64,000 bases of DNA from Omnitrophica bacterium GWA2_41_15 (GCA_919902105.1 CAKKQO010000017.1:3305-67304), one strand, 5' to 3'. Positions 21,256 to 61,506 are shown, counted from the stretch's first letter. The notes: generated by a model not told the origin, from the letters alone. A program made the numbers and translations.

Positions 21256-21933
21256 ATGAGAAAGACAATATTATTTTTATCCTGGTTAATTTTTTACGTA
21301 GGTTCTGCCTATGCCGTGCCGATGAAAGGGCCGTATTTTTTAAAACAAGGCCAAATTGAGGTAGGCGTTGAGGCAAATTTTGTCGCCAGGCGCGATATTG
21401 AGGATATTACTACAAACATCCAAAGCAGCCAATTTTTTTATTGCATGGCCTTTGGTTTGTTTGACTGGTTAAATATCGAGGCAAAGTATGGCTCAGGCGA
21501 TATTAAGAACGATCAATATAATGACCAGAAATTTTATTATAATTACAACTGGGGCGGCGGATACGGCTTAAGAATAAAGGCATATGAAAACCATAAAATG
21601 AAAATTATCTTAGGGGCTCATCATATTAGTATCCATCCTGACCCGAACAAAAATACGGATAATTCAACCCATCGCGTAATTTTAGACGAAACGCAGTCCG
21701 ATATAACTTTAAGCCTAAAAGGAGAAAGGTTTAGCCCATACGCAGGCGCAAAAGTCGGGCATACCCGCCTTATCCGGCGCATAAATTCTGAGCGCGCGAC
21801 ATTACGCTCGGAAGAAAATTACGGTTTTGCTTTAGGGTTTGATTATATGTTTAAGAAAAACGTGCGTTTTAATTTTGAAGGCCGCTTCGTCGATGAATAC
21901 GCTTTGACCTCGAGCGTAAGCTACATATTTTAA
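21256..21933 (+). CDS. Putative outer-membrane beta-barrel protein
   Basis: 225 aa. Signal peptide (..GSAYA), alternating amphipathic strands, C-terminal ...SVSYIF. Confidence 0.5.
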   Translation: MRKTILFLSWLIFYVGSAYAVPMKGPYFLKQGQIEVGVEANFVARRDIEDITTNIQSSQFFYCMAFGLFDWLNIEAKYGSGDIKNDQYNDQKFYYNYNWGGGYGLRIKAYENHKMKIILGAHHISIHPDPNKNTDNSTHRVILDETQSDITLSLKGERFSPYAGAKVGHTRLIRRINSERATLRSEENYGFALGFDYMFKKNVRFNFEGRFVDEYALTSSVSYIF

Positions 21934-22047
21934 ATGAAGCCACAAGTTAGGGAACGTAAGTCGACATAACTTGTCTGGCTGAATTTATCCCGCCGAATAC
22001 CATAAAATTCTCTATTGATAATTTTATGGTATCTTATGAGGCGGGAG
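21934..22047 (-). repeat. Nested-hairpin boundary element (BH family), copy G, stop-codon-abutting orientation
   Basis: TAAATGAAG + AGCCACAAGTTA...TAACTTGTCTGGCT hairpin + GAATTT + ATCCCGCC[ACCATAAAATT...AATTTTATGGT]GGCGGGA. Confidence 0.7.
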
Positions 22048-22076
22048 AGCGTTTTATGTTCCGCTAATCCTAAAAT

Positions 22077-22673
22077 ATGCAAATAATTATAATTTTAGGC
22101 ATCCTTCTGGCGTTAGTGAGCTTAGCTTTGCTGAAGCTATTGATGTTACGGCGCAGGTTCTGGATAGGAGTTTGTTTTATCCTTATTTTATTGCTTGGGT
22201 TAGTGTTAAGTTTTATCGGCTATTTGTTTAGCCCATACCGTATATTTGACGAAAATAAACCCGTAGCTTTAATTGAGTCAACGCCAGTCAAGGCCGAGAT
22301 TTATGACGCAGTGCTGGCAATAAAACACCTAACTAATCCTAAAAGCCGCAGGCCAGAAAAATTTCTGCTTACGGGGAATCGATGGATAATTGAGGGTAAT
22401 ATTCTAAAAGTAAAATTAAATAAAGGTGAGATTAATTTATATAGAATAGCGCGCATAAGAAGCGGCTATATTAATCCGGGAAACCTTAGGCCTTTTCCGG
22501 AATTAGCTTATAATTTATCTAAGCGCAGAGATATATTGGGGGATTTTTTAAATAAGCAAAAATTAGATTTTATAGAAGCATTTACCGGGACAGTTAGCTA
22601 TCGCAGCGGCGATGAAAAAGCCGAGTTTTATTTGTATGCTGCAGATAGCGGATTCAGGCTAGAGAAGGAATGA
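22077..22673 (+). CDS. Hypothetical membrane protein
   Basis: 198-aa ORF with two N-terminal TM helices. No motif recognised. Confidence 0.35.
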   Translation: MQIIIILGILLALVSLALLKLLMLRRRFWIGVCFILILLLGLVLSFIGYLFSPYRIFDENKPVALIESTPVKAEIYDAVLAIKHLTNPKSRRPEKFLLTGNRWIIEGNILKVKLNKGEINLYRIARIRSGYINPGNLRPFPELAYNLSKRRDILGDFLNKQKLDFIEAFTGTVSYRSGDEKAEFYLYAADSGFRLEKE

Positions 22674-23302
22674 TTACGCAAAAAACAGGAATAGAGATTA
22701 AGGCGATATTGTTTGATCTAGGTAATGTCACGGTAAATTTTAACCATTATTTAGCCGTTGAAAGGATAAAAAATTTTACGGATAAAAGCGGCGATGAAAT
22801 TTATCGGTTATTTTTTGATTCTGACCTTACCGGCTTATTTGAAGAAGGAAAACTTAAGCCTTATGAATTTTACCGTAAGGTAAAGGAACTTCTAAAAGTT
22901 AAAATTAGCTACGAAGAATTTGTGCCTATCTGGAATGAGATATTTTTTATTAGCGAAGATAACCTAAAAATGCACGCCCTGATTAAAAAATTCAGAGAAA
23001 AATTTACGGTGGTGTTAATTTCCAATATCAATAAGTTGCACTATGATTATTTGATAAAAAAATATGATATATTTGAAGAGTTTGATAAACATATACTTTC
23101 CTACGAAGTAGGTGCGCGTAAGCCGGCTACTTTAATTTATAAAGCAGCACTTAGGGATGCAGACGCAGATATTAAAGATGTGGTTTATATCGACGATAGG
23201 GAAGATTTAGTCAAGCAGGGTAACGCCTTGGGGATAAAGAGCATATGTTTTAAAAATTATCCGGCCCTTGTAGAAAGTTTAGGCGCCCTGGGGTTAATAT
23301 AA
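22670..23302 (+). CDS. HAD-superfamily hydrolase (subfamily IA-like)
   Basis: 210 aa. Motif I AILFDLGNV, motif II ISN, C-terminal YIDDRE. Confidence 0.7.
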   Translation: MITQKTGIEIKAILFDLGNVTVNFNHYLAVERIKNFTDKSGDEIYRLFFDSDLTGLFEEGKLKPYEFYRKVKELLKVKISYEEFVPIWNEIFFISEDNLKMHALIKKFREKFTVVLISNINKLHYDYLIKKYDIFEEFDKHILSYEVGARKPATLIYKAALRDADADIKDVVYIDDREDLVKQGNALGIKSICFKNYPALVESLGALGLI

Positions 23303-23304
23303 GG

Positions 23305-23440
23305 ATTTGCGGCATCGAGAAAAATCTAATCGCCAGCCGGCAGATTTTTCTTGCGTCGCAAAAGTATTTGCGACATCAAGCAAAAAATTTACGCCAGTTG
23401 GCATTTTTTGCTTGACAACAACTATATCTTGTGTTAACTT
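23305..23440 (+). promoter_or_regulatory. Promoter-carrying hairpin repeat (P family), copy P1 with duplicated unit; TTGACA-17-TAACTT
   Basis: GAAAAATCT-aatcgccagccggc-AGATTTTTC, TCGCAAA-agta-TTTGCGA, CATC, GCAAAAAAT-ttacgccagttggc-ATTTTTTGC, then TTGACA 23412-23417 and TAACTT 23435-23440. Confidence 0.55.
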
Positions 23441-24626: not shown

Positions 24627-24767
24627 CTCCGCCTCATAGGATGCCCTAAAATTTTCGTGCGATAATTTTAGGGCATTCGGCGGAGTTAATCCCGCGAGAA
24701 GCGGGATCAATTCCGGCATATAACTTATGAGCGCTTCGTTCCATAAGTTATGCCGTCATTGAGGAGG
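24627..24767 (+). repeat. Nested-hairpin boundary element (BH family), copy A, start-codon-abutting orientation
   Basis: CTCCGCC[ATGCCCTAAAATT...AATTTTAGGGCAT]GGCGGAG, ATCCCGC-gagaa-GCGGGAT, CAATTCC, GGCATATAACTTATG...CATAAGTTATGCC, GTCATTGAGGAGG, then TTG start 24773. Confidence 0.75.
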
Positions 24768-24772
24768 ATAAA

Positions 24773-25957
24773 TTGGCCAATAACCAGCAGGTTTTAGAAA
24801 AACCGCAGGCACAAACAGAAAATATTTCTGCGCTTCCTAGCCGGCGCAGGACTTTTCCCATCGATTATAGCGAGCTCAGCCTTTTTAAAGATGTCTCCCC
24901 TTTAGAATGGGAAGATTGGCATTGGCAGATAAAAAATAGTATTCATACCAAAGACCATCTTTCTCAGATTATTCAATTGACGCCACAGGAAGAAGAAGGT
25001 ATACGCCGCAGCCGCGGCCGCTTAGCGGTTTCCATTACTCCTTATTGGGCAACGTTGATAGATTCAGAAGATCCGCAGTGCCCAATAAGGCGCCAGGCCG
25101 TTCCTTTAGCCGATGAATTTAATATCGGCCCGCATGAGATGGCGGACCCTTGCGCAGAAGACAGGGATTCCCCTGTGCCCGGCTTAGTCCATCGTTATCC
25201 GGACAGAGTTCTATTGCTGGTAACTGAGCAGTGCGCAATGTATTGCCGGCATTGCACACGACGCAGGATTGTCGGCGAGAAAGAACACAGAGGCCTTGAT
25301 TTAAATAAGGCAGTAGAATATATCAAAGCAAACCATAAAATCCGCGATGTGCTTATTTCCGGCGGAGACCCTTTTATGCTTGAGGATGATGATTTGGAAA
25401 AAGTTATTCAAGCCGTCCGCGGCATCTCGCATGTGGAATTTTTGCGTATCGGAACACGTGTTCCGGTAACGCTTCCCCAGCGGATTAGCGAAAAATTAGT
25501 CATAATGCTTAAGAAATACTCGCCCCTATGGATAAGCCTGCATTTTAATCATCCCCGCGAAATCACTAAAAGAGTTAAGCAGGCAATGGCGATGCTGGCG
25601 GATTCCGGCTTTCCTTTAGGGTCGCAGACGGTGCTATTAAAAGGGATTAATGATAAACCGTATATTATGCGCAAGCTTATGCATGAATTGCTGAAAGTGA
25701 GGGTGCGGCCATATTATATTTATCAGTGTGACCCTGTCAAAGGCACTGCGCATTTTAGGACGCCCGTTGCCGTGGGCATAAACATAATTGAAAAGATGCG
25801 CGGCTATACCTCAGGATATGCAGTTCCTACCTATGTGGTAGACGCACCCGGCGGAGGCGGAAAAATACCCGTCGGGCCGAATTACCTTCTTTCTCAGGAT
25901 AAAGGGCGTTATACCCTAAGAAACTACAAAGGCAAAATATATACTTATATTGAATAA
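24773..25957 (+). CDS. kamA: Lysine 2,3-aminomutase (KamA-family radical SAM enzyme)
   Basis: 394 aa. CAMYCRHCTRR radical-SAM cluster, WEDWHWQ N-terminal block, ITPYWATL and SGGDPF blocks as in KamA. TTG start. Confidence 0.85.
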   Translation: MANNQQVLEKPQAQTENISALPSRRRTFPIDYSELSLFKDVSPLEWEDWHWQIKNSIHTKDHLSQIIQLTPQEEEGIRRSRGRLAVSITPYWATLIDSEDPQCPIRRQAVPLADEFNIGPHEMADPCAEDRDSPVPGLVHRYPDRVLLLVTEQCAMYCRHCTRRRIVGEKEHRGLDLNKAVEYIKANHKIRDVLISGGDPFMLEDDDLEKVIQAVRGISHVEFLRIGTRVPVTLPQRISEKLVIMLKKYSPLWISLHFNHPREITKRVKQAMAMLADSGFPLGSQTVLLKGINDKPYIMRKLMHELLKVRVRPYYIYQCDPVKGTAHFRTPVAVGINIIEKMRGYTSGYAVPTYVVDAPGGGGKIPVGPNYLLSQDKGRYTLRNYKGKIYTYIE

Positions 25958-28112: not shown

Positions 28113-28823
28113 ATGGTAAAAATTGGAATATTCGGTTTAGAAAATATTTTTTCCGGCACAAAAGCCGCTGTCGCTGATAAACGCATCGATAAGCTAAAGG
28201 ATTTATTTAAATCCGCCAAAAAAGTCTATATAGAAACAGAGTTAATTTATGAACAAGCAAACCTATCTGAGGCAGACGGAATAATTATAAATAAGGATTC
28301 GAAACTGGATTTAATCTTATCCGACTTAGAGTTTGTCGAAACAAGGTTATCCCGGACAGAAGATAGAGGAGAAAAAGAATTACTCGCTAGATTTAAAATA
28401 AGCTTAGAAAAAGAAGAGTTTCTTTCTTTTGAGCCGTTAAACGATGCCGAGAAAAAGATTATTGCCCCATTCCAGTTGTTCACCATCAGGCCGATATATT
28501 TAGTAGATACAAGTAAAGAAGTGGATAAGGATGCCATTTTACTTAACGCTTATAATGAGTTTGGGTATATTTCTTTTTTTACCGTTGGCGATAAAGATTC
28601 GCATGGCTGGCCGCTAAAAAAAGGTTTGACTGCTTGGGATGCCGCAGGAGTAATCCATTCGGATATCCAGCGCGGCTTTATCCGCGCCGAAGTAGTGCAT
28701 TATGATGATTTAATTAAGGCGGGGCACTTAAACGAGGCGCGCAATAACGGGCTTTTAAAATTAGAAAATAAAGAATATGTAGTGCAAGACGGGGATTGGA
28801 TGCTCTTTAGGTTTAATAAATGA
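28113..28823 (+). CDS. YchF-like protein retaining the C-terminal DUF933/TGS-like domain but lacking a recognisable P-loop
   Basis: 236 aa. The C-terminus FFTVGDKDSHGWPLKKGLTAWDAAGVIHSDIQRGFIRAEV matches the YchF C-terminal domain. The N-terminus KIGIFGLENIFSGTKA replaces GxxGxGKST. Confidence 0.6.
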   Translation: MVKIGIFGLENIFSGTKAAVADKRIDKLKDLFKSAKKVYIETELIYEQANLSEADGIIINKDSKLDLILSDLEFVETRLSRTEDRGEKELLARFKISLEKEEFLSFEPLNDAEKKIIAPFQLFTIRPIYLVDTSKEVDKDAILLNAYNEFGYISFFTVGDKDSHGWPLKKGLTAWDAAGVIHSDIQRGFIRAEVVHYDDLIKAGHLNEARNNGLLKLENKEYVVQDGDWMLFRFNK

Positions 28824-28895
28824 CGGCACAACTTATAGAGCCGTAAGGCGATATAAGTTGTATGCCGGAATTTATCCCGACCGAAGCGTCGGGAT
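28821..28895 (-). repeat. BH family copy B1, stop-codon-abutting orientation
   Basis: AAATGAC (the TGA is the stop of the upstream gene) + GGCACAACTTATA...TATAAGTTGTATGCC + GGAATTT + ATCCCGAC-cgaagc-GTCGGGAT. Confidence 0.75.
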
Positions 28896-28952
28896 AAGTG
28901 AGGGTTCAGCCAAGAAGTATCAGTGGGATTGAACGTTGAGATTTATTAATAC

Positions 28953-29070
28953 TTGCTCCTTGCTTTAACGCTTGTAAATTTCTTCGAAATTTACTACGCA
29001 AGCTTCGGAGTCAATTCAGCCGGATAACTTATGGCATTCTGCGAATTCCATAAGTTATGGCTTCATTGAC
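28953..29070 (+). repeat. BH family copy B2: Q module + terminal hairpin, abutting the purH start
   Basis: The 65-nt Q module (28953-29017) is about 90 percent identical to 42711-42775. Then ATAACTTATGG...CCATAAGTTAT hairpin and TTCATTGAC before ATG 29071. Confidence 0.75.
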
Positions 29071-30633
29071 ATGATTAGAGTAAAACGCGCGCTTATAAGC
29101 GTATCAGATAAGCAGGGGATATTGGAATTTGCTAGAACACTCCAAAGTTTGGATGTTGAGATAATTTCAACCGGGGGGACAGCAAAGATATTATCCGACG
29201 GCGGAGTAAAAGTTATTGAGGTTTCGGATTATACTGGTTTTCCGGAAATGCTCGATGGCAGGGTTAAAACCTTGCATCCCAAGATACACGCAGGGCTTTT
29301 GGCTGTACGGGATAAGCCCGAGCATATGAAGCAATTAGCCGAACACAAGATAGGGCTGATTGATATGGTGGTAGTAAATTTATATCCTTTCGAGAAAACC
29401 ATACAAAAAAAAGGCGTGACACTTAGCACGGCAATTGAAAATATAGATATCGGCGGGCCTTCAATGTTAAGGTCTGCTGCGAAAAATTACCGTTCGGTAG
29501 CTGTGGTCTCTAATCCGGCCAGATACGAAGAGATTTTACGGGAATTAAAAAACAATAACGGCATATTATCAGATGCGGTTTTGACCCAGCTTGCTTTGGA
29601 TGTTTTTAATCTTACCTCTTATTATGACAAAGCAATTTTTAATTATTTAAAAGGCACTTTTTCTTTGGGGGAGCTTGAAAAAATCACCTTTCCAGAAACG
29701 ATAGAGCTTAGTTTTAAAAAGCTCCAGGACTTAAGATATGGCGAAAACCCGCATCAGAAGGCGGCATTTTATGCTAATAAAAATGGCGATTTAAGAGGGT
29801 TAGCGGGCGCCAAGCAATTAAGCGGCAAAGAGCTGTCTTTTAATAACATCTTAGATTTGAATTCTGCTTGGGGATTGGCTTGCGAGTTCGATAAACCTGC
29901 GGCAGTAATCGTTAAGCATAATAACCCTTGTGGCGCGGCCGAAGATGAAAATTTGCTTAAGGCATATCAGAATGCCTATAAGTGTGATCCGTTTTCTGCT
30001 TTTGGCGGGATTATCGCCTTAAACCGGCCGGTGGATAGGGCGGTAGCACAGGCATTGGAAAAGAGCGGGTTTATTGAATGTGTCCTTGCCCCGAGTTTTA
30101 GCAAAGATGTGCTTAAGATTCTAGAAAAAAAGAAAAATCTCAGGATTTTAGAGCTAAAAGATAATGAGATAAAAGAGAGCATAGACTTTAAGAAAGTGTC
30201 CGGCGGCATGCTCTTGCAGGATAAGGATTCAAAAATTTATGCCCCGGATAATTTAAAAACAGTGACAAAAAAGAAGCCTTCTAAGAAAGAAATTGAATCT
30301 TTACTTTTTGCTTTTAAAGTGGCAAAACACGTCAAATCCAATGCCATCATTTTAGCTAAGGCCACTATGACCGTTGGTGTCGGCGCAGGCCAGATGTCGC
30401 GCGTGGACAGCGCATATATTGCCATAAAAAAGGCTGGGAAGTTAGCCAAAGGTGCAGTTGCAGCAAGCGATGCCTTTTTCCCTAAAGAGGATGCCGTTAT
30501 CCAGCTGGCCAAGGCTGGGATAAAGTCAATAATTCAACCCGGCGGTTCCATCGCCGATGCGCAAATTATTAAAACTGCGTCTAAATTAGGCGTCTCTATG
30601 GTCTTCTGCGGGATGCGGCATTTTAGGCACTAA
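29071..30633 (+). CDS. purH: Bifunctional AICAR transformylase / IMP cyclohydrolase
   Basis: 520 aa. RALISVSDK, GGTA, DGRVKTLHP, NLYPF, NIDIGGPSMLR, VIVKHNNPCG and GGSI blocks. Confidence 0.9.
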   Translation: MIRVKRALISVSDKQGILEFARTLQSLDVEIISTGGTAKILSDGGVKVIEVSDYTGFPEMLDGRVKTLHPKIHAGLLAVRDKPEHMKQLAEHKIGLIDMVVVNLYPFEKTIQKKGVTLSTAIENIDIGGPSMLRSAAKNYRSVAVVSNPARYEEILRELKNNNGILSDAVLTQLALDVFNLTSYYDKAIFNYLKGTFSLGELEKITFPETIELSFKKLQDLRYGENPHQKAAFYANKNGDLRGLAGAKQLSGKELSFNNILDLNSAWGLACEFDKPAAVIVKHNNPCGAAEDENLLKAYQNAYKCDPFSAFGGIIALNRPVDRAVAQALEKSGFIECVLAPSFSKDVLKILEKKKNLRILELKDNEIKESIDFKKVSGGMLLQDKDSKIYAPDNLKTVTKKKPSKKEIESLLFAFKVAKHVKSNAIILAKATMTVGVGAGQMSRVDSAYIAIKKAGKLAKGAVAASDAFFPKEDAVIQLAKAGIKSIIQPGGSIADAQIIKTASKLGVSMVFCGMRHFRH

Positions 30634-32079
30634 ATGACCCACCCCCAAGCAATCCGCTATTTAGAATCCTTAGTAAACTACGAGAAGAAATCCTATTATC
30701 ATTATAAACACGCATTTAAATTAGAGGGCATAAAGAATTTTTTAGAAATCTTGGGCAATCCGCAGGATTCTCTACGCTGTATTCATATTGCCGGCACTAA
30801 AGGTAAGGGTTCAACCTGTGCCTTTATTGCTCATATCTTAAGAGAGGCCGGACTTTCCGTCGGACTTTATACCTCGCCGCATTTATCGGATTTCCGCGAG
30901 CGCATTAGGATTTTAACCATACCACCTACTACCTATCACCTATCACCTGAATTTGAGGGGATGATTTCAAAACAAGCGTTATCGCGCTTGGCTTGGCGCC
31001 TAAAGCCGACAATAGATAAATTTAACCACAATTCTAAATACGGCCCGCTGACATTTTTTGAAGTTTATACGGCACTCGCCTTTATTTATTTTAAAGAAAA
31101 AAAAGTGGATTTTGCGGTTTTAGAGACGGGTTTGGGCGGAAGATTAGATGCCACAAATGTGATTAATCCTTTAGTCTGCGTAATTACCCCGATAAGTTTA
31201 GAGCATACTCAACTTTTGGGCAATACATTAACGAAAATTGCCCGCGAGAAGGTGGGTATTATCAAGAAGTTTCGCCCCTCGCCCCTCGCCCCTCGCCCCT
31301 CGGTAGTAATCAGCGCGCCGCAGGAGGAAGCAGCAGCTAGGGTGATTAGGGATAGATGTAGAAAAGTTGGCGCTAGATTATATGAAGTAGGGAAGGATAT
31401 AAGATACAAAAAATCCGAAATCCGAAATCCGAAATCCGAAATAAATCTAAAATCCAAAATCAAAAAATTTAAAATCCGCGGAATTTTTAATGAATATAAT
31501 AATTTAAAAATAAAACTTTTAGGTAAGCATCAGCTGGTGAATGCCGCCACGGCAGTGGGGGCAGTTGAGGCGTTAAAAAAATACGGCATTAGTGTAAATA
31601 TCGATGCGATAAGAAAAGGGCTTTATAATACGTTTTGGCCGGGCAGATGCGAAATTGTATCTAAGAAACCGTTAATTGTTTTAGACGGTGCGCAGAATGT
31701 TGCTTCAGCTAAGGCATTAAAAGAAACGATTAAAGAAAATTTTTCCACCGAAGGCGGATCCGCCTCCGGCGGAAAGTATAAAAAGTTAATTCTGGTTTTA
31801 GGGGCTTGTTGCGATAAAGATATTAAGGGAATATGTAATGAGTTGTGCTTGATGGCAGACGAAATCATCTTAACCAAAGCCAAAAACCCGCGGGCGGCGG
31901 AGCCGGAGCATATCAGGGTTCAGGGTTCAGGGTTAAGGGTTAAGGAAAAAATACATTTAACAGAAAATGTAGAGGAAGCGATTCAAAAAGCAGAAGAGCT
32001 TACTAGCAAAGAAGATTTAATCCTGATTACGGGGTCGTTGTTTGTGGTGGCAGAGGCGAGGGAAGTGTTGCAGAAATGA
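30634..32079 (+). CDS. folC: Folylpolyglutamate synthase / dihydrofolate synthase, with several low-complexity in-frame inserts
   Basis: 481 aa. HIAGTKGKGST P-loop, LETGLGGRLDATN, GKHQLVNAATA, LDGAQNV blocks. Start abuts the purH stop. Confidence 0.85.
   Translation: MTHPQAIRYLESLVNYEKKSYYHYKHAFKLEGIKNFLEILGNPQDSLRCIHIAGTKGKGSTCAFIAHILREAGLSVGLYTSPHLSDFRERIRILTIPPTTYHLSPEFEGMISKQALSRLAWRLKPTIDKFNHNSKYGPLTFFEVYTALAFIYFKEKKVDFAVLETGLGGRLDATNVINPLVCVITPISLEHTQLLGNTLTKIAREKVGIIKKFRPSPLAPRPSVVISAPQEEAAARVIRDRCRKVGARLYEVGKDIRYKKSEIRNPKSEINLKSKIKKFKIRGIFNEYNNLKIKLLGKHQLVNAATAVGAVEALKKYGISVNIDAIRKGLYNTFWPGRCEIVSKKPLIVLDGAQNVASAKALKETIKENFSTEGGSASGGKYKKLILVLGACCDKDIKGICNELCLMADEIILTKAKNPRAAEPEHIRVQGSGLRVKEKIHLTENVEEAIQKAEELTSKEDLILITGSLFVVAEAREVLQK
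30923..30950 (+). repeat. Heptanucleotide tandem array in folC (CACCTAT-type, 4 units)
   Basis: CACCTAC TACCTAT CACCTAT CACCTGA. Translated as PTTYHLSP. Confidence 0.85.
31272..31302 (+). repeat. Heptanucleotide tandem array in folC (TCGCCCC x4)
   Basis: TCGCCCC x4 then TCGG. Translated as RPSPLAPRPS. Confidence 0.9.
31411..31480 (+). repeat. Heptanucleotide tandem array in folC (AAATCCG x4 plus degenerate AAAATCC-type units)
   Basis: AAATCCG x4, then AAATAAATCT AAAATCC AAAATCA AAAAATTT AAAATCCGCGG. Translated as KSEIRNPKSEINLKSKIKKFKIRG. Confidence 0.9.
31742..31775. repeat. 34-bp GC-rich palindrome, folC copy (31/34 identical to the mnmE copy)
   Basis: TTTCCACCGAAGGCGGATCCGCCTCCGGCGGAAA. 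Two A-C mismatches in the stem. Translated as STEGGSASGGK. Confidence 0.85.
31923..31957 (+). repeat. Heptanucleotide tandem array in folC (TCAGGGT x3, TAAGGGT, TAAGGAA)
   Basis: Direct reading. Translated as RVQGSGLRVKE. Confidence 0.9.
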
Positions 32080-32108
32080 ACCCGGTAATTTTCTTTAGTT
32101 AAATTTAT

Positions 32109-32323
32109 GAGAATATCTTATGCCGTTTTCGCTCCAAATTGCAATTTTTTACGTCAGCTTCTCGATATTTTAAGGTGCCTGCGGAACTCCCCCACACCCA
32201 GTATGCTGGGTGTGGGGTCAGACAGTCCTCGGCACGCTTCCTCTTATTCATCGGAAGTGACCTTAAAATACCTGCGACTCCTGACTAAATTGCAAAATCG
32301 CTCAAACGACACAAGATATCCTC
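32109..32323 (-). ncRNA. Candidate rod-like structured RNA or MITE (element E3); strand assignment from wobble pattern
   Basis: 20-position outer helix 32109-32128 / 32304-32323 with three A-C mismatches on + that become G-U on -. Arms are similar for about 75 nt. Perfect 12-bp hairpin CCCCACACCCAG-tatg-CTGGGTGTGGGG (32190-32217). TAAATT direct repeat 3 nt outside each end. Confidence 0.4.
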
Positions 32324-32410
32324 CAATAAATTAGTTTAAAAATTACCAGTTTCATTTCTAAACTATTGCGAGGAGATAGGCGCAAAACGCAAAACTTTAA
32401 CTGGGAGGGG

Positions 32411-32929
32411 ATGATGAGGAAGGTATTATTAAAAGTCAGCGGTGTAATACTTATAATTTGGGGCTTAAGTTGGATTATCCCCTTATGTTTTATGCATGCA
32501 GAAAAGCGTCTATTACATACCGAAACGCGTGTTGTACATGACGTTATGCTCGGCATACCTTTATTAGGGGAAAGAATGCCCGTTATCCTGAGAAGATCCT
32601 TAAGGGTGACTGAGGAAATTATGCTATTCTTAGGTGGTCCTATCTTAATATTCGCGGGTATAAGATTATTTTCTTTTAAAAGATTGGCGCGGAAACTAGC
32701 CATATTTTCCTATTTAATAGTTTTAGCATACACTGTTTTTCTAAATATTTCTTGGTATATGTGTTCTACAGCGATAGACAACAGCGATGAAAGCCCATTT
32801 AGTATCGTAAGCATTATAGAATACTTTCGTTATTGGCCGCCACGTTATCTTATTGAGTTACTTATTCTTATGCTTATTCCCACATTTTTTATTGTTATTT
32901 TATTTAGGTATAAGGAACAATTTAAATAA
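32411..32929 (+). CDS. Hypothetical multi-TM membrane protein
   Basis: ATG 32411 after GGGAGGGG. Four or five predicted TM helices. No motif recognised. Confidence 0.4.
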   Translation: MMRKVLLKVSGVILIIWGLSWIIPLCFMHAEKRLLHTETRVVHDVMLGIPLLGERMPVILRRSLRVTEEIMLFLGGPILIFAGIRLFSFKRLARKLAIFSYLIVLAYTVFLNISWYMCSTAIDNSDESPFSIVSIIEYFRYWPPRYLIELLILMLIPTFFIVILFRYKEQFK

Positions 32930-33043
32930 CTTTACCTGCCCCAAAGTAAAGGCGCAGTTTTCTTCTGGAGGCGGATACGACTGCAGCAGTAATTAGCGGA
33001 AAGATATTAAGTATACTAAAGTAAACTTTAGATAACTTTTTTC

Positions 33044-33072
33044 TTGACAACCGGTATTTTCTGTGGTATATT
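33044..33072 (+). promoter_or_regulatory. Promoter TTGACA-17-TATATT (with TGn extended -10) for the toxin-antitoxin operon
   Basis: TTGACA 33044-33049, TGG-TATATT 33064-33072, GGAGGTG SD, ATG 33093. Confidence 0.65.
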
Positions 33073-33092
33073 TTTGTTGGAGGTGAAAGATA

Positions 33093-33320
33093 ATGCATAG
33101 AATATCTTACGCAGTTAAAATCGAGCCTTCTTTGATAAAAAAAGTAAGGGAATTTTGCCTGCAGCACGGGGTAAAACAAGGGTTTTTTATTGAAAAAGCG
33201 CTCAGGGAACAATTAGCCAGAGAGGAATTGATTGAAGACCTGATAGATTTTAAAAATCTGCGTATTCAGGAGGGTTCCGCGATTAGCTTTGAGGATTATT
33301 TGAAAAAGAGGGCTTCGTAA
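33093..33320 (+). CDS. Type II antitoxin (small DNA-binding protein upstream of a RelE/ParE toxin)
   Basis: 75 aa. Stop overlaps the toxin start (TAATG). Acidic C-terminal half. Confidence 0.6.
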   Translation: MHRISYAVKIEPSLIKKVREFCLQHGVKQGFFIEKALREQLAREELIEDLIDFKNLRIQEGSAISFEDYLKKRAS

Positions 33321-33571
33321 TGTATCGCCTCAAAATAATCGCCCATGCCCAGAAAGATCTCGATACTTTCCACGGGAAAGATTTTGAAAGCATAAAAAAG
33401 AAAATATTGAGCCTTTCGACTAATCCCCGTCCTTTTGGTGCAATAAAACTGACGCAAGAAGAAAGTTATCGTATTAGGGCAGGTGATTGGCGTATTTTAT
33501 ATAGAATAGACGATAAACAGAAAGAAGTAATTATATATCGTATCAAACATAGAAAAGAAGCCTACCGCTAA
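33320..33571 (+). CDS. RelE/ParE-family type II toxin
   Basis: 83 aa. Pattern KDLD....I...I..L..NP.P.G..KL......YRIR.GDWRILY.I.D....V.I..I.HRKEAY is typical of RelE/ParE. Confidence 0.75.
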   Translation: MYRLKIIAHAQKDLDTFHGKDFESIKKKILSLSTNPRPFGAIKLTQEESYRIRAGDWRILYRIDDKQKEVIIYRIKHRKEAYR

Positions 33572-33611
33572 AACCATTCTTAATTTTTTCGTTATTTATA
33601 GATAGTATTAT

Positions 33612-35099
33612 ATGATTGATACAAGGTTTAATCTAACCGACACAATCGCGGCGATGGGGACGGGGCTAGGGGAAGCCGGTATCGGAATTGTGCGCATTAG
33701 TGGAAAAGATGCGCTAAAGATTGCCGATAAGATTTTTGTTGGTAAAGACGGTAACAAACCGTCGCAATTTAAAACATATACGCTGCATTATGGGTGGATT
33801 GTGAATAGTCCACAGTCCATAGTCCGTAGTCCACAGAAAAAAAAGAAGAAACTACCGACTACCGACTACCGACTACCGACTAATATTATCGATGAAGTGC
33901 TTTTGACGGTAATGCGCGCGCCCAAGAGTTATACTAAGGAAGATGTAGTGGAGATAAATTGCCATGGAGGGATTGTGGCAATGCGGGCGGTATTAGATTT
34001 GGTTTTGGCGAATGGGGCGCGCCTTGCCTCTGGCGGTGAATTTACCAAGCGTGCCTTTTTAAACGGAAGGATTGATTTAAATCAGGCAGAGGCAGTTCTG
34101 GATATAATTCGCGCCAAAACAGATAGTGCGCTTAAAATAGGGACAGAGCAGTTAAGAGGGATATTGTCTTTGCAAATAAATAAACTGCATAAGGATTTGT
34201 TAGGCGTACTTACGATATTAGAAGCAAATATTGATTTTCCCGATGAAGAAATTGGCGCGGTTAATTTAAAAGAGGTTAATAAAAAGCTCAAGACCACAAA
34301 GAATAAACTAAAAGATATTGTAGATTTGGCAAAGCGCGGGCAAGTGCTGCGCGATGGTATTGGCGCGGTTATCTGCGGCAGGCCCAATGTGGGCAAATCC
34401 TCGCTTTTGAATGCGCTCTTAAGAAGGGAGCGCTCTATCGTTAGCCCGGTTGCCGGCACTACCCGTGACACAATAGAGGAAATTATCGATATAAAAGGCA
34501 TTCCAATTAGGATTGTAGATACTGCAGGAATTATTGAGCCGCGGGATTTAGTGGAAAAAAAGGCGGTTTCGCGCTCTAAGCGCGTTATTGATCTGGCGGA
34601 TTTGGTGATTTTGCTTTTTGACGGCAGCCAAAAATTAAACAAAGAAGATAGTGCGCTGATTAAAAAATTTCCTCCGAAGGCGGATCCGCCTTCGGAGGAA
34701 AGCAAAAAGCAAGTTATCGCGGTTATAAATAAAATAGACCTAAGGCAAAAAATAAAAAAAGAGAAACTAAATAAAGTATTTGAATGTGTAATTGAGCTTT
34801 CAGCGAAGAAAATAAAGAATATAAATTTATTAGAAGATGCGATTGCGGGTTTGGTGTTTGGCGGAAAAATCAATAAATCCGAGTCTCTACTGGTGAGTAA
34901 TTTAAGGCATATTGAGTTGCTTAGGGGAGCGCAAAAAACTCTTGGCCAGGCCTGCGATTCGCTGGATAATAAAGTGTCTCTTGAATTCATTGCCCAGGAT
35001 ATTAAGGCGGCCTTAGGTTATTTTGATGATATTTTAGGTAAGAAATTTTCCGAAGACCTATTGGATAAGATATTTGGGGAGTTTTGTATCGGTAAATGA
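33612..35099 (+). CDS. mnmE: tRNA modification GTPase MnmE with in-frame repeat inserts
   Basis: 495 aa. DTIAA..T, SYTKEDVVEINCHGG, GRPNVGKSSLLNAL, VAGTTRD, DTAG, C-terminal FCIGK. Confidence 0.85.
   Translation: MIDTRFNLTDTIAAMGTGLGEAGIGIVRISGKDALKIADKIFVGKDGNKPSQFKTYTLHYGWIVNSPQSIVRSPQKKKKKLPTTDYRLPTNIIDEVLLTVMRAPKSYTKEDVVEINCHGGIVAMRAVLDLVLANGARLASGGEFTKRAFLNGRIDLNQAEAVLDIIRAKTDSALKIGTEQLRGILSLQINKLHKDLLGVLTILEANIDFPDEEIGAVNLKEVNKKLKTTKNKLKDIVDLAKRGQVLRDGIGAVICGRPNVGKSSLLNALLRRERSIVSPVAGTTRDTIEEIIDIKGIPIRIVDTAGIIEPRDLVEKKAVSRSKRVIDLADLVILLFDGSQKLNKEDSALIKKFPPKADPPSEESKKQVIAVINKIDLRQKIKKEKLNKVFECVIELSAKKIKNINLLEDAIAGLVFGGKINKSESLLVSNLRHIELLRGAQKTLGQACDSLDNKVSLEFIAQDIKAALGYFDDILGKKFSEDLLDKIFGEFCIGK
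33806..33880 (+). repeat. Two heptanucleotide arrays joined by an A-run inside mnmE (TAGTCCA-type x4, ACTACCG x4)
   Basis: TAGTCCA CAGTCCA TAGTCCG TAGTCCA (33806-33833), A-rich linker, ACTACCG x4 (33851-33878). Translated as SPQSIVRSPQKKKKKLPTTDYRLPTN. Confidence 0.9.
34668..34701. repeat. Perfect 34-bp GC-rich palindrome inside mnmE
   Basis: TTTCCTCCGAAGGCGGATCCGCCTTCGGAGGAAA. Translated as FPPKADPPSEE. Confidence 0.9.
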
Positions 35100-35204
35100 A
35101 GACATAACTTATGGAGCGATAGCGAACATAAGTTATCTGTCTGAATTTATCCCGAAGCGTGTGCAGGAAATTTCAAAGAAATTTCCAAACGCTTACGCAA
35201 GGGA
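35095..35204 (-). repeat. BH family copy F, stop-codon-abutting orientation
   Basis: AAATGAA (the TGA is the mnmE stop) + GACATAACTTATG...CATAAGTTATCTGTC + TGAATTT + ATCCCGAAGCGT[GGAAATTTC-aaa-GAAATTTCC]ACGCTT..GGGA. Confidence 0.7.
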
Positions 35205-35216
35205 AAATGAGGGTTT

Positions 35217-36023: not shown

Positions 36024-36368
36024 ATGGAGCATTCTAAAATACAATTAGCCGACAAACAAGCCGACGGCTATTGTATTAACTTACGCCCTTCCTCTAAAGG
36101 TATAAGGAAGGCGTATCCTACTGGATTAGGCGCGGTTAATTTAGTCTTTATGGTTACGAATAAGGGAATGTTAGGGTGCGGCGCCTTTAATGTAGCGGTG
36201 CTGGATAAATTTAACTACCCTACCGCTGTTGTGCGTTCAACTTCCGGCTCGCCTATTGCAACCATTGACGAACTTCTCTCTGGCGTAGTCAAAGAGGCAA
36301 ATGCCTCTGCCATCAAACTTGGCGTAAAAGCCGGTATGCCGGCTAAAAATGCCTTGGAAAAATTATAA
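36024..36368 (+). CDS. DUF1805 (YunC-like) family protein
   Basis: 114 aa. NLVFMVTNKGMLGCGAF pattern resembles DUF1805. Tentative. Confidence 0.5.
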   Translation: MEHSKIQLADKQADGYCINLRPSSKGIRKAYPTGLGAVNLVFMVTNKGMLGCGAFNVAVLDKFNYPTAVVRSTSGSPIATIDELLSGVVKEANASAIKLGVKAGMPAKNALEKL

Positions 36369-40497: not shown

Positions 40498-41130
40498 ATG
40501 GCGGAAATTGGGAGGGCGAGCAAAATGAAAGGGAAGACGGAAATATTTGTTTTAATCATAATCTTCCTCTGCGGCTTGGCAGGCTTTTCTTTATATAAGT
40601 ACGCAGGGATAAATATAGATTTAGGCCGCGAGAAGAAGCAGTTGATAGAGTTAGAAGCAAGAAATAATGCAATAACTCAAGAATTAGGAGAACAGAAAGT
40701 GCGCCTTAGCCAAGTAAACGAGGAGAAGAAAAACCTTGAAGAAGAAGTAACTCTCGGCAGGCAAAATTTAGGCCAGCTGAAGCTAGAATTAGCGGATAGC
40801 CGCAAGTCACTGGCAAGTTTACAAAGGACGGTCGAAGAATTAACTGCCGTTAATCAGAATTTAAATCAGGAACAGGCTGCTCTAAAGGCAAAAATCGAAG
40901 AATTAACCAGCCGAAAAAATACTTTAGAGGCGAAGATAAGTTCTGTAGAAGAACTTAAACAGATGTTGAAAGATTTAATAAAGTCAAAAAGAACCCAGCG
41001 CCACAGGAAGGCGAGAGCAAAGATAAACACAGAACAAGAATCAAAAGATAAAAACCATGGTTATATCATTTATCAGGGAAAACCTACCTTTAAGCCTAAG
41101 ATTTCTATACAGGTAAGACCCGTCCTTTAA
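40498..41130 (+). CDS. Membrane-anchored coiled-coil protein
   Basis: 210 aa. One TM helix, then a long heptad-rich segment (LEEEV..LKLELADSRKSLASLQ..). The start could be ATG 40525. Confidence 0.4.
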   Translation: MAEIGRASKMKGKTEIFVLIIIFLCGLAGFSLYKYAGINIDLGREKKQLIELEARNNAITQELGEQKVRLSQVNEEKKNLEEEVTLGRQNLGQLKLELADSRKSLASLQRTVEELTAVNQNLNQEQAALKAKIEELTSRKNTLEAKISSVEELKQMLKDLIKSKRTQRHRKARAKINTEQESKDKNHGYIIYQGKPTFKPKISIQVRPVL

Positions 41131-41216
41131 AGGTATCAGGACGGTCTACCCTTGTAGGGTAAGACCCGTCCTTTAAAGGTATCAGGACGGTCTACCCTTG
41201 TAGGGTAATACCCGCC
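41112..41216 (+). repeat. 46-nt tandem duplication (2.3 copies) spanning the gene end; each unit forms a hairpin
   Basis: GGTAAGACCCGTCCTTTAAAGGTATCAGGACGGTCTACCCTTGTAG at 41112 and 41158, with a partial third copy. Contains AGACC(C)GTCCT/AGGACGGTCT and TACCC/GGGTA stems and a GTAG motif. Confidence 0.85.
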
Positions 41217-41694: not shown

Positions 41695-41815
41695 ATCCCG
41701 TTTCGTAAGATGCGTCAAAATTCTATTCTACAATTTTGACGCACTCAACGGGATCAATTCCGACATATAATTTACGTAAACTTTGTTTACGTAAATTATG
41801 TCGTCATTTAGGAGC
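41695..41815 (+). repeat. BH family copy D, start-codon-abutting orientation
   Basis: ATCCCGTT[GCGTCAAAATT...AATTTTGACGC]AACGGGAT, CAATTCC, GACATATAATTTACGTAAA...TTTACGTAAATTATGTC, GTCATTTAGGAGC, then ATG 41820. Confidence 0.75.
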
Positions 41816-42710: not shown

Positions 42711-42826
42711 TGCTCCTTGCTTGAGCGCTAGTAAATTTCTTACGAAATTTACTACGCAAGCTGCGGAGTCAATTCGCGCAAAATAATTTACATCAGCTTC
42801 GCTTCTGTAAATTATGCGCTCATTGA
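42711..42826 (+). repeat. BH family copy C: Q module + terminal hairpin, abutting the accA start
   Basis: Q module 42711-42775, GCGCAAAATAATTTACA...TGTAAATTATGCGC hairpin, then TCATTGA directly fused to ATG 42827. Confidence 0.75.
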
Positions 42827-43792
42827 ATGGCTAATTTAGATTTTGAACGGCCTATAAAAGAATTAGAAAAAAAAATAGAAGAGTTAAAGCATTTTTCTTC
42901 CGAGCGCAAGGTTGATTTATCTACAGAGATTAAAACCTTAGAAGAGAAGTTATTAAAATTACGTAAAGAAACCTACCAGAATCTAACTGCTTGGCAGAGG
43001 GTGCAGATTGCCCGCCATCCTAGGCGGCCATATACTATAGATTATATAAAACTCATTACTACAGATTTTATTGAACTGCACGGTGACAGGCTTTTTGGCG
43101 ACGATAAAGCTATAATTTCTGGCTTTGCAAAGATAGAACCGTATAAAGTTTTGATTATCGGCCAGCAAAAAGGCCGCGATATCAAGGAAAATATTTTACG
43201 TAACTTTGGCTGCGCGCATCCAGAGGGTTTTAGAAAAAGTATGCGCCTGATGAAGCTTGCCGCACAGTTTAATCTGCCTATTGTGGTTTTTATTGATACG
43301 CCAGGCGCCTATCCGGGAATCGGCGCAGAAGAAAGAGGCCAGGCGCAGGCAATTGCAGAAAACCTGCGCGATATGACAAAAATAAATGTGCCGATAGTGG
43401 TGATTGTAATCGGCGAGGGGGGCTCAGGCGGTGCACTCGGTATAGGCGTTGGGGACAGGGTCTGTATTTTAGAAAACGCCTACTATTCGGTTATCTCTCC
43501 TGAGGGGTGCGCGGCTATCCTCTGGAAAGATAGCGCAAAGGCGCCACTTGCGGCTGAGGCGCTTAAGCTGACCTCAGAAGATTTGTTTAAGGCAGGTTTA
43601 ATCGACGAAATTATCCCTGAGCCGTTAGGGGGGGCGCATAACAATCCCCAAGAGACAGCTCGGAGTATCAGACAAACCATCCTTAAATATCTAAAAGAGC
43701 TAAACTTGATTCCTGAAGATAAACTGCTGGAATTAAGATACGAAAAGTTTAGAAAAGTAGGCAGAATTAGCCCTTCGACTCCTTCGGGGTAA
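42827..43792 (+). CDS. accA: Acetyl-CoA carboxylase carboxyltransferase alpha subunit
   Basis: 321 aa. [41 protein letters not shown] blocks. Short GC-rich C-terminal tail ISPSTPSG. Confidence 0.9.
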
Positions 43793-46139: not shown

Positions 46140-46147
46140 AGTAAAAT

Positions 46148-46269
46148 CCTCCTCAATGACGACACGACTTATGGAAATCGTAGATTGATATAAGTCGTAT
46201 GTCGGAATTGATACCGAAAGCTGCGATAAAAATTTGGAACAAATTTTTGAAGCGTTTTACTTTCGGTAT
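46148..46269 (-). repeat. BH family copy E (minus orientation), abutting the rpmA start
   Basis: On the - strand: ATACCGAAAG[...AAAAATTT..AAATTTTT...]CTTTCGGTAT, CAATTCC, GACATACGACTTAT...ATAAGTCGTGTC, GTCATTGAGGAGG, 8 nt, ATG. Confidence 0.75.
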
Positions 46270-58209: not shown

Positions 58210-59632
58210 AAAAATAAATTTTGTTCTTGTCCCTATCGCTGTTTGCTTTTCTTTGGGGATATCGGCGGCGAGTTTCACTAATATCCCTTTTTTTATTTGT
58301 TATCCGCTTTCTGCCATTCTGCTCATTGTTTGTTTATTCCTAAGAGATGATGAGGCGTTTAGCATAAATTTATTGGGCCTGGCTTTTTTTATCGGGGCAG
58401 CGCATTTATCCTCTTATCAGACCCTACCTAAAAATCACATTGCTGATGCTAATAATCGCTGGATATTTTGGCAGGATGGTATTTTGGCAAGGGGTCTTAT
58501 TATCGATGAGCCGCAAATTAAAGAGGGAAGAGCTAAGTTTATATTATATTTGTCAGAGATAAAGGTTGGGGGTGGGGAACAAAAAGCAACAGTAAGGGGA
58601 AAAATTTTAGTTACGGTTTTTGACGGAGAAGTATTGCCAAAAATATCTTACGGCGATGAGGTAATTTTGGAGGGAAAATTTTTCAGGCCGCATAATTTTG
58701 GTAAAAAAAGCAATTTCGACTATCGCCGTTATTTAACGCGCCGAGGCATATACGGTGCATTAAATGTCAGAAAAGGCGCGCCTTTTAAAATAACCGCGCA
58801 TAATAGAGGGAATTTTATTAAGCAATTGGCGATTAAATTTAAAAATAAAATAGAGTCTGGCTTTTACGCTAATATGCCTGAAAGCTACGCGGCGGTCTTA
58901 TCAACAATGTTATTAGGGGATAGGTCGAGTTTACCTAAAGGGATTTTAGAAGTATTTGTCAGGACCGGCACCGCCCATATTCTGGCTATAAGCGGCATGA
59001 ATATCGCGATAACCGCTTTTATTCTGCTTGTATTTCTAAAAGTAATGCGCATTCCCAGAAAGCCGCGTTATATTTTAACCATCCTGCTCCTTGTATTTTA
59101 TAATTTTATTACCGGCGCACAGCCGTCTGTAAGCCGAGCAGTGATTATGGGCTCGGTTTTGTTAGTCGGATTGTTGCTTGAGAGGGAGGTAAATATCTAT
59201 AATTCTCTGGCTTTGGCAGCGTTAATCCTACTGGCACAAAATCCCTTGCAAATACAAGAGATAGGGTTTCAACTGTCTTTTGTCAGCGTTATCTCAATAG
59301 TTTATCTTTCCCCAAAGATAGAAAGGTTTTTACGCCTGAATAATTTTATTCTAAAATCTTTTTCTGTATCGCTGGCGGCGTGGCTTGGCACATTCCTATT
59401 CATAATTTATTACTTTAAGATTATTTCGCCGGTGACTATTTTGGCTAATTTAGTTATTGTGCCTTTGGTAACGGTGCTTACGGTGGCAGGGTTTATTTTG
59501 ATGTTGGGGATATTTATTCTACCGGCTTTTGTTCACGTATTTGGCCTGACTGCGGGTGCAAGCGTTTATCTCTTGATTAAATCCGCTGAACTTTTCTCCC
59601 TCATCCCCGGCGCATATTTTTATTTAAAATAA
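58187..59632 (+). CDS. comEC: ComEC/Rec2 DNA internalisation channel (DUF4131 + competence domain; no metallo-beta-lactamase domain)
   Basis: 481 aa, multi-TM. Conserved GTAHILAISGMNI and SRAVIMG blocks. TTG start uncertain. Confidence 0.7.
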   Translation: MFLKSQNKKINFVLVPIAVCFSLGISAASFTNIPFFICYPLSAILLIVCLFLRDDEAFSINLLGLAFFIGAAHLSSYQTLPKNHIADANNRWIFWQDGILARGLIIDEPQIKEGRAKFILYLSEIKVGGGEQKATVRGKILVTVFDGEVLPKISYGDEVILEGKFFRPHNFGKKSNFDYRRYLTRRGIYGALNVRKGAPFKITAHNRGNFIKQLAIKFKNKIESGFYANMPESYAAVLSTMLLGDRSSLPKGILEVFVRTGTAHILAISGMNIAITAFILLVFLKVMRIPRKPRYILTILLLVFYNFITGAQPSVSRAVIMGSVLLVGLLLEREVNIYNSLALAALILLAQNPLQIQEIGFQLSFVSVISIVYLSPKIERFLRLNNFILKSFSVSLAAWLGTFLFIIYYFKIISPVTILANLVIVPLVTVLTVAGFILMLGIFILPAFVHVFGLTAGASVYLLIKSAELFSLIPGAYFYLK

Positions 59633-59633
59633 A

Positions 59634-59729
59634 TTTTTCTTGCGCCACAAAAGTCTTTGCGGCATCGCGCAAAAAATTTACGCCAGAAGGCATTTTTTGC
59701 TTGACAAACAAAATCGGATTGATTAAAAT
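59634..59729 (+). promoter_or_regulatory. P-family hairpin repeat copy P2 with TTGACA-17-TAAAAT; leaderless start
   Basis: CTTGCG, CCACAAA-agtc-TTTGCGG, CATC, GCGCAAAAAAT-ttacgccagaaggc-ATTTTTTGC, TTGACA 59701-59706, TAAAAT 59724-59729, ATG 59737. Confidence 0.6.
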
Positions 59730-61341: not shown

Positions 61342-61369
61342 TCCGCAAAAGATAATTTTGCGGATTTTT
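61342..61369 (+). terminator. Intrinsic terminator-like hairpin
   Basis: TCCGCAAAA-gataa-TTTTGCGGA + TTTTT. Confidence 0.7.
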
Positions 61370-61370
61370 A

Positions 61371-61451
61371 TTGAGGCCACAACTTATGGAGCGAATGCGC
61401 TCATAAGTTGTATGGCCGAAATAATCCCGCGGATAGTTTACGAAGCGGGAT
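61371..61451 (-). repeat. BH family copy H
   Basis: TTATTGAG + GGCCACAACTTATG...CATAAGTTGTATGGCC + GAAATAA + TCCCGC-ggatagtttacgaa-GCGGGA. Confidence 0.7.
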
Positions 61452-61469
61452 AGAAGAATGAAGGGAGTA

Positions 61470-61506
61470 AAGGCGCTCCGGTAAAACGGAGCGCCTTTTT
61501 ATTTTT
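61470..61506 (+). terminator. Strong intrinsic terminator
   Basis: AAGGCGCTCCG-gtaaaa-CGGAGCGCCTT + TTTATTTTT. Confidence 0.85.

Follow-up and report, generated by a model that had tools for sequence, protein, structure and literature searches.

The window analysed here, a stretch of 64,000 nucleotides from Omnitrophica bacterium GWA2_41_15, holds a long imperfect palindrome, termed E3, between folC (30634-32079, plus strand) and a gene for a 171-aa membrane protein (32414-32929, plus strand) that protein searches left as an ORFan. Further downstream come the genes of a toxin-antitoxin pair, an RHH antitoxin with a ParE-family toxin (33093-33571), followed by mnmE and folE. A preliminary description of the sequence had delimited E3 as an element of 215 nt. 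The full rod is larger, about 290 nt, as an outer inverted repeat with 90% complementary arms lengthens it on either side (Table 1), and its paired span starts at the stop codon of folC (TGA, 32077-32079). The two TAAATT copies that had been noted 3 nt beyond each end of E3 are indeed present (32100-32105 and 32327-32332); they sit within the continued stem and are not a target-site duplication. A 75-aa ORF on the plus strand (32107-32334) is spurious, a by-product of the palindrome. E3 is not an assembly artefact, because four Logan contigs from five sequencing runs carry sequence 100% identical to the window, and exact sequence look-ups matched only contigs identical with the window.

Table 1. 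Features of the E3 rod and further repeats, in window positions (a point in the strand column: no strand assigned).
Feature	Position	Strand	Basis or remark
Full rod-like element, ~290 nt	32071-32360	-	RNA and DNA folds
E3, inner 215 nt of the rod	32109-32323	-	Span of the preliminary description; folds
Outer inverted-repeat arm, left, 21 nt	32072-32092	.	Overlaps the last folC codons and stop; similar outer arm in L087
Outer inverted-repeat arm, right	32339-32359	.	Inverted-repeat search
20-bp helix, left arm	32109-32128	.	3 mismatches: A.C on plus, G.U on minus
20-bp helix, right arm	32304-32323	.	Complementarity to left arm
Stem a (inner variable stem), left arm	32164-32176	.	Pairs with 32260-32272 in folds
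Stem a, right arm	32260-32272	.	Folds
Side hairpin CTTCC...GGAAG	32237-32257	-	Between stem a and core; L087 has a different hairpin in the same place
Apical module (conserved core and closing helix)	32171-32238	-	R1 covariance model, 56.9 bits, E 5.7e-13; E3 is among the 104 sequences that built the model
Core 5' strand on minus, C-GAGGACUGUCUGA (plus strand: TCAGACAGTCCTCG)	32218-32231	-	Identical in L087
P2, variable apical hairpin, 12 bp with 4-nt loop in E3	32190-32217	-	In the family 15-45 nt; sequence varies and covaries
Core 3' strand on minus, GAGUUCCGCAG (plus strand: CTGCGGAACTC)	32179-32189	-	Identical in L087
Modular hairpin repeats	21925-22110, 24695-24775, 28815-29072, 35090-35216, 41700-41815, 42728-42830, 46140-46265, 61365-61605
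Third repeat family	23295-23420, 59630-59710, 62287-62339		Tandem pair 23301-23414

The minus strand folds better than the plus strand, as had been proposed. As RNA, the full rod reaches -125.3 kcal/mol on minus (z -11.0) and -98.8 on plus, and as DNA -66.0 against -55.1; for the inner 215 nt the RNA values are -98.4 kcal/mol (z -10.8) and -78.1 (z -7.6), and no shuffled sequence matched them on either strand. All internal loops in the predicted E3 folds are small. The arms of the 20-bp helix are complementary at 17 of 20 positions, and in a fold restricted to Watson-Crick pairs the three exceptions (32112/32320, 32120/32312 and 32123/32309) are A-C on plus and G.U on minus, just as first described. 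That fold contains four isolated mismatches, all G.U on the minus strand and none A.C, the fourth (32083/32348) lying outside the helix. The apical hairpin of 12 bp with a 4-nt loop is perfect, again in line with the preliminary description.

Through FolC homologues we reached four syntenic loci (L085-L088), all with the gene order ychF-purH-folC-(variable)-mnmE-folE. What fills the slot differs: the ORFan membrane gene with ParE/RHH in the window (32080-33611), a small ORF with MNT/HEPN in L086 and L088, a DUF2007 gene in L085, and a 121-aa ORF in L087. Because the genes differ among relatives, we regard the folC-mnmE interval as a variable accessory slot. In L087 a rod of 216 nt lies directly 3' of the folC stop. 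Its arms differ from those of E3 and its centre is identical, reading CTGCGGAACTC, then a different hairpin, then TCAGACAGTCCTCG; the E3 layer formed by the 20-bp helix seems to be missing there in a two-sequence alignment that is ambiguous. The core is identical at 25 of 25 positions between the window and L087, and since the FolC proteins are 70% identical, this indicates selection on a function in place. The core rod is absent from L085, L086 and L088, the first two being the relatives whose FolC is most similar overall (75% and 71% identity). L088 has only 41 nt at the rod site, and we set it aside as an empty-site control: homology between its 170-aa ORF and the window's ORFan could not be demonstrated, the likeness upstream of the two ORFs is limited to about 34 nt, and the comparison is weak. 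No pair of empty and filled sites was found in near-identical genomes. L085 (6530-6680) and L086 (11460-11610) carry an unrelated palindrome of about 140 nt (GAAAACTTTCGCCGACC ... GCCGAAAGTTTTC) that starts at the folC stop codon, and so the site after folC seems to attract hairpin elements repeatedly.

A scan of JGI metagenomes with the pattern GCGGAACTC-N(15-45)-TCAGACAGTCCTC returned at least 120 stretches, and among the stretches listed, together with the window and L087, there are 127 exact instances of the core, on contigs of 33-68% GC. A tolerant search gave 140 instances in 786 kb of family loci, where 590 kb of unrelated control loci gave 1; about 8% of these copies differ at one to three core positions, and the invariance of the core is partly a result of the search, because an exact pattern was used. 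Every member is a long imperfect palindrome of about 200-300 nt whose arms differ from copy to copy, and the equivalent of stem a has a different sequence in other members with its pairing kept. On the strand that corresponds to the window's minus strand, hereafter F, the sequence of the conserved module is (G)C-GAGGACUGUCUGA-(P2, 15-45 nt)-GAGUUCCGC-AG(C). Folded, it gives a near-invariant asymmetric apex, on the window's minus strand C-GAGGA / CUGUCUGA / variable hairpin / GAGU / UCCGC-AG, with an invariant core of about 24 nt. The conserved bases left unpaired in it make up a loop of 8 x 4 nt next to the apical hairpin. What is conserved in the predicted structure is a small internal loop at the apex and no bubble at the centre.

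The preliminary description had seen in E3 more than a palindrome of duplex DNA and had named covariation among relatives as a check. We aligned 104 distinct apical domains after removing the interior of P2 to reach a common length (alignment A2), and the helices on both flanks of the core covary, which bears this view out: 75.7% of cells are paired under the proposed structure against 58.2% in shuffles, and the covariation score reaches 0.418, where shuffles give 0.146 (0 of 500 reached the observed value) and slid registers 0.10-0.13. Two loci, L182 and L199, carry a compensatory change from G:C to C:G inside the core (GAGCA.../GAGUUGCGC). The R1 covariance model gave no second match in the 64-kb window at E<=10, so that E3 is a single copy there. 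Core and P2 are shared between L091 and L103, from the same sample, and by copies on the same contig in L171, with inner stems that are wholly different yet complementary. In high-GC members the two arms carry boxes that repeat in direct and not in inverted orientation. P2 loops are mostly of 3 nt, and neither GNRA nor UNCG loops are enriched in P2 on either strand, which makes them uninformative as a test of strand.

Two smaller units were seen beside the rods. L092 (1643-1739) contains two complete apical modules, core and P2, in tandem and 14 nt apart, the second being a CUGUUUGA variant, which suggests that the module of about 55 nt can duplicate alone. Module B, GGGG.CGCCTTCTTTGGTTACTTT(C)TCTTGGCGAAGCAAGAGAAAGTAAC...GCCGGGCTACCCCCGGC with two hairpins, follows the rod in high-GC members (L125, L133, L150, L160, L171, L185, L200 and others) at about +60 to +130 nt 3' of the core on F, and E3 does not have it. 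Among plasmids, BLAST of a high-GC member matched the Ilyobacter polytropus megaplasmid only, and there no more than part of module B; among phages it matched nothing. Module B matches this megaplasmid partially at six places (NC_014633.1 around 223998), and it may therefore be an independent module.

The strand preference of E3 recurs throughout the family, where F is the more stable of the two strands in 93 of 109 members, the mean difference being 6.9 kcal/mol. Wobble pairs point the same way: on F, G.U outnumbers A.C in P2 (41:15, p=7e-4) and among isolated arm mismatches of Watson-Crick-only folds (60:35, p=0.013), although a cruder arm alignment gave no bias (250 vs 228). This strand evidence supports an element that works as one folded strand, always of the same polarity. 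G.T is the best-tolerated mismatch in DNA, and for this reason the bias cannot separate RNA from single-stranded DNA; strand-biased cytosine deamination could add to it. A U-rich tract follows the rod on F in many members (57 vs 29, p=8e-5), and this T-rich tract arises because module B follows the rod in high-GC members. Canonical terminator-like sites are not enriched on F (28 vs 22 of 97). In L160 the conserved unit ends with a GC-rich hairpin and then a run of T.

Two or three copies are held by 17 of 122 loci. The preliminary description had taken dispersed copies with target-site duplications as the mark of a MITE: the multiple copies are found in these other loci, whereas the window has one copy in 64 kb and no duplication was seen at L160, L167 or L146, nor do the outer ends of conserved units share a terminal inverted repeat. 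The arrangement of the copies is strongly polar. Adjacent inverted copies stand head-to-head, with the 5' ends of F facing, in 15 cases and tail-to-tail in none (p=6e-5), besides five tandem pairs; an inverted partner within 400 nt occurs on the 5' side of 19 of 123 copies and on the 3' side of 0 of 114. Ten pairs lie 108-273 nt apart from core to core. In the closest, at L210, the 108-nt sequence between the cores reads as two rods about 12 nt apart, which leaves no room for separate promoters. The other five pairs enclose 1.1-3.7 kb, and four of them were examined: at L160 a protein with a RelA_SpoT domain (GC 0.42 in the cargo against 0.56 in the rest of the locus), at L146 a GNAT acetyltransferase and a small ORF (0.60 against 0.70), at L209 a DUF2971 protein (0.44 against 0.64), and at L167 a native-looking operon that includes folD (0.49 against 0.50). 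Three of the four wide pairs examined thus enclose foreign genes of lower GC.

The surroundings of the copies are otherwise ordinary. There is no preferred orientation relative to flanking genes, and BLAST clustering over the 122 loci revealed no shared neighbour gene family, the neighbours being ordinary housekeeping genes. Among the 150 nearest ORFs no Pfam family has more than three members within the best 25 of 226 families, and the same 25 include no Y1 transposase and show no enrichment of integrases; in the window itself, Y1 transposase is absent among the best 25 of 95 Pfam families.

The module is apparently unannotated, in that we found no description of it in Rfam 15 or the searchable literature, which falls short of proof. 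At gathering thresholds Rfam 15 returned only two tRNAs elsewhere in the 64-kb window, and on 25 family loci only tRNAs reached threshold. Near E3 (31900-32550) the sole match at E<=10 was Hammerhead_1, at 14 bits against a cut-off of 34, which is chance level. The likeness to 6S or other rod RNAs that had been suggested for E3 did not hold at gathering thresholds, and RF00013 (6S RNA) gave no match in the window at this threshold nor at E<=10 in 31900-32550. Likenesses to hammerhead and hairpin ribozyme cores, SRP RNA, 5S rRNA, the sarcin-ricin loop, a type I-E CRISPR repeat and the ops element were considered and dropped, being without computed support. Full-text literature searches with core strings matched primers only as 9-mers and nothing as 12-mers, and keyword searches yielded nothing relevant to the element. 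Scanning the genome contigs with a terminal-repeat consensus gave 80 single chance matches with no likeness beyond the pattern. Among viral contigs, the core occurs in two only. In a protein search, the translation of a spurious ORF in a high-GC member found three unnamed weak matches, and no Pfam family matched the spurious ORFs.

The window is rich in other repeats. A modular hairpin-repeat family, distinct from E3, occupies at least eight intergenic regions (Table 1) and its shared blocks include TCAATGA-N-GNCATAACTTATGG ... CCATAAGTTATGNC-N-TCATTGA and CGGGATAAATTC; several copies directly adjoin a start codon or ribosome-binding site, as just before purH at 29071, and the larger ones fold at about -90 kcal/mol on both strands. 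A third family consists of units of 53-75 nt with a hairpin of the AAAAATCT/AGATTTTT type ending ...TTGCTTGACAA, and a 46-nt hairpin unit (GGTAAGACCCGTCCTTTAAAGGTATCAGGACGGTCTACCCTTGTAG) is perfectly duplicated in tandem at 41112-41203, with a diverged third copy at 36079-36124. A palindrome of about 34 nt, TTTCCNCCGAAGGCGGATCCGCCTNCGGNGGAAA, lies within folC (31736-31782) and mnmE (34662-34708) with both frames intact, translated as ...STEGGSASGGK... in FolC and ...PPKADPPSEES... in MnmE; it recalls the Rickettsia palindromic elements, which insert into genes. Short-read contigs end at about 31418, 31748, 33880 and 34697, two of these points being close to the 34-nt palindromes. The 3' end of folC has a heptamer-like tandem repeat (31913-31940, TCAGGGT TCAGGGT TAAGGGT TAAGG) translated as ...RVQGSGLRVKEK..., and there are further low-complexity insertions in FolC and MnmE (PRPSPLAPRPS, SPQSIVRSPQ, TTDYRLPT), which suggest frequent insertion of repeats into coding sequence in the source genome.

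We consider E3 to be a solo copy of a widespread family of non-autonomous hairpin DNA elements that are recognised as a folded single strand and are related in kind to foldback, REP or MITE elements, a joint reading to which we give a probability of about 0.5. One strand, the window's minus strand, would fold into a hairpin when single-stranded, for instance during replication, transfer or cruciform extrusion, and the conserved unpaired bases between two helices would serve as the recognition site for a protein encoded elsewhere. By analogy with attC/IntI and REP/RAYT, this protein is likely a recombinase or HUH-type nuclease, and it would copy or move the element. Head-to-head copies could bracket, and probably carry, short accessory genes; E3 would lie where the variable folC-mnmE slot begins on the left, with its 5' end towards the cargo, which is also how paired copies are oriented. 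E3 stands without a partner and is probably immobile, and the only effect it is likely to have locally is to give the folC transcript a very stable terminal hairpin. This DNA-element reading is favoured because of the head-to-head polarity, the foreign cargo, the multiplicity and patchy presence of the copies, and the lack of room for promoters. It also agrees with a core that is identical in the syntenic L087 rod between different arms and that recurs across the metagenome stretches far above the control loci, with covariation on both sides, the compensatory core change and the strand-specific excess of G.U/G.T, with minimal apical loops in which GNRA and UNCG are not enriched, and with unbiased flanking-gene orientation and unshared neighbour families. 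Against it stand the absence of a partner enzyme among the neighbour families listed, outer ends without terminal inverted repeat or target-site duplication, the want of an empty/filled pair in near-identical genomes and the single copy in the 64-kb window. The same core and apical hairpin also occur with wholly different yet complementary arms, for which simple copy-and-paste does not account. The core match to L087 at that FolC identity points to a function in place, part of the core's invariance comes from the exact-pattern search, and the G.U bias and possible tandem G.A pairs suit RNA equally well.

These last points lead to a minus-strand gene for a non-coding RNA, in which a rod-shaped transcript would present the invariant apical loop to a conserved protein while the arms need only pair; we hold this possible but less probable. 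The preliminary description had argued for such a transcript, and the strand preference it relied on stands, at E3 and family-wide, while a sigma-70-type promoter or canonical terminator was not found on the minus strand beside E3. Strong covariation around an invariant asymmetric loop would be expected of such an RNA, as would the core kept in syntenic position in L087 between diverged arms; the U-rich tract after the rod on F and the hairpin with T run at the end of the L160 unit fit it too, and the U.G, G.A and A.G pairs next to P2 make a candidate K-turn-like motif that could include tandem sheared G.A. The reading suffers from the missing Rfam family, from terminator-like sites that are not enriched on F, from pairs that are always head-to-head and in some cases almost abut, from multiple and patchy copies, and from minimal apical loops with no enrichment of RNA-type tetraloops; at E3 the transcript would moreover be antisense to the folC stop region. 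Within neighbouring transcripts, the rod could be a cis-acting RNA element that stabilises the folC 3' end or acts as transcription barrier or as an insulator separating folC from the downstream accessory genes, as for REP and ERIC, and a rod that starts at the folC stop codon in both the window and L087 and still reaches -98.8 kcal/mol on plus would serve this well; head-to-head pairs with outward U-rich tracts could likewise stop transcription leaving the cargo. We think this unlikely, as the better-folding strand is antisense to folC, a hairpin followed by a U tract (intrinsic terminator) is absent at E3 on both strands, the family shows no orientation bias against flanking genes, and the invariance of the 24-nt core across phyla would be left unexplained.

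The preliminary description had also pointed to a likeness between the first 18 nt of E3 and the start of the antitoxin gene, and 16 of 18 positions do match (32110-32127 vs 33096-33113). A minus-strand RNA would thus have a 3' arm complementary to codons 3-8 of the RHH antitoxin and might regulate it as an antisense. Both differences fall at third codon positions, and a 14-mer with two degenerate positions occurs exactly only at these two sites in the window, yet the matching segment is buried in the 20-bp helix, it seems absent from the L087 rod in the ambiguous two-sequence alignment, and the arms of the 59 members whose flanks are long enough match nearby sequence no better than controls once other element copies are excluded; antisense regulation is therefore very improbable. 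The spurious 75-aa ORF starts MRISYAV and the antitoxin (33093-33320) MHRISYAV, the remainder of the ORF being without similarity, and judged from these sequences the likeness is probably a chance or relic match. That E3 is nothing but a palindrome arisen by chance or in decay, functionless and belonging to no family, might be thought in a genome where other hairpin repeats abound; with z-scores of -10.8 and -11.0 and a fold that no shuffle equals, and with the exact core and covarying helices recurring in at least 120 unrelated metagenome stretches, its probability is negligible.

Going beyond the hairpin-element reading, we tentatively propose, in the knowledge that the odds are against it, a hitherto undescribed cross-phylum system in which the invariant apical loop of a folded single strand, possibly K-turn-like, would be shown to a conserved protein acting in trans, head-to-head pairs would capture and move short accessory or defence genes, and the arms would be regenerated by hairpin-templated copying. 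If true, one conserved nucleic-acid module missed by annotation would span from Omnitrophota (~40% GC) to bacteria of nearly 70% GC, and the R1 model would offer a searchable signature leading, through co-occurrence across genomes, towards the recognising protein. The head-to-head polarity and the enclosed foreign genes suggest a route by which small accessory genes, toxin-antitoxin and defence genes among them, might enter conserved housekeeping neighbourhoods, and the hypervariable yet complementary arms pose the puzzle of how long palindromes arise and persist. On a practical level, such rods break short-read assemblies and spawn spurious ORFs, of which the 75-aa ORF is one.

Among known systems, 6S RNA resembles E3 in its length of about 200 nt and its rod shape, but its gene is single-copy, its sequence is little conserved, and a large bubble at its centre imitates an open promoter. 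The E3 family, in contrast, has multiple copies, inverted pairs that are always head-to-head, and an invariant loop of small size at the apex. MITEs such as Correia/NEMIS, ERIC, RUP, Tn3-derived TIMEs and TIME-COMPs are likewise palindromic and intergenic, measure 100-300 nt, fold as RNA when co-transcribed, and can bracket cargo between two copies. Their copies, however, have terminal inverted repeats in common and carry target-site duplications. In the E3 family it is the centre that stays constant while the ends change, and target-site duplications were not seen. Each known MITE family is restricted to one genus or one taxonomic family.

The REP and REPIN elements served by RAYT, a Y1 HUH enzyme, resemble the E3 family in several ways, being intergenic, multi-copy, hairpin-forming and non-autonomous, with a presumed action as folded single strands, inverted copies that can flank a gene and no target-site duplication. 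Yet a REP is a species-specific unit of 20-40 nt with a conserved 5' GTAG, of which the E3 family showed none, while E3 members carry their conserved part, an asymmetric loop of 24 nt, at the tip of a rod of 200-300 nt with hypervariable arms, over 33-68% GC. A REPIN consists of two inverted REPs, unlike the direct-repeat arm boxes of the high-GC members. The RAYT gene is usually flanked by REPs; none was seen near the copies by neighbour clustering or among the best 25 of 226 Pfam families. The ends of IS200/IS605 elements and PATEs also do without terminal inverted repeats and target duplication and rely on strand-specific hairpins of single-stranded DNA, but at both ends such an element carries its hairpin in a subterminal position, on one and the same strand and directly oriented, unlike the E3 family, and no TnpA or TnpB was seen near the copies.

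The attC sites of integrons, recognised on their folded bottom strand by IntI, share general traits with the family: imperfect palindromes of variable length and sequence, recognition by structure through conserved unpaired bases, strand specificity, and a link to short accessory-gene cassettes. They conserve basal R''/L''-L'/R' boxes (RYYYAAC / GTTRRRY), whereas in the E3 family the apex is conserved and the rod ends vary; and attC sites form arrays in direct orientation by intI, whereas E3 members are mostly solo, with 15 inverted pairs against 5 tandem ones and no adjacent integrase. Should the cross-phylum system exist, it would be comparable to integrons in mobilising cassettes, but would be built on inverted pairs of hairpins.
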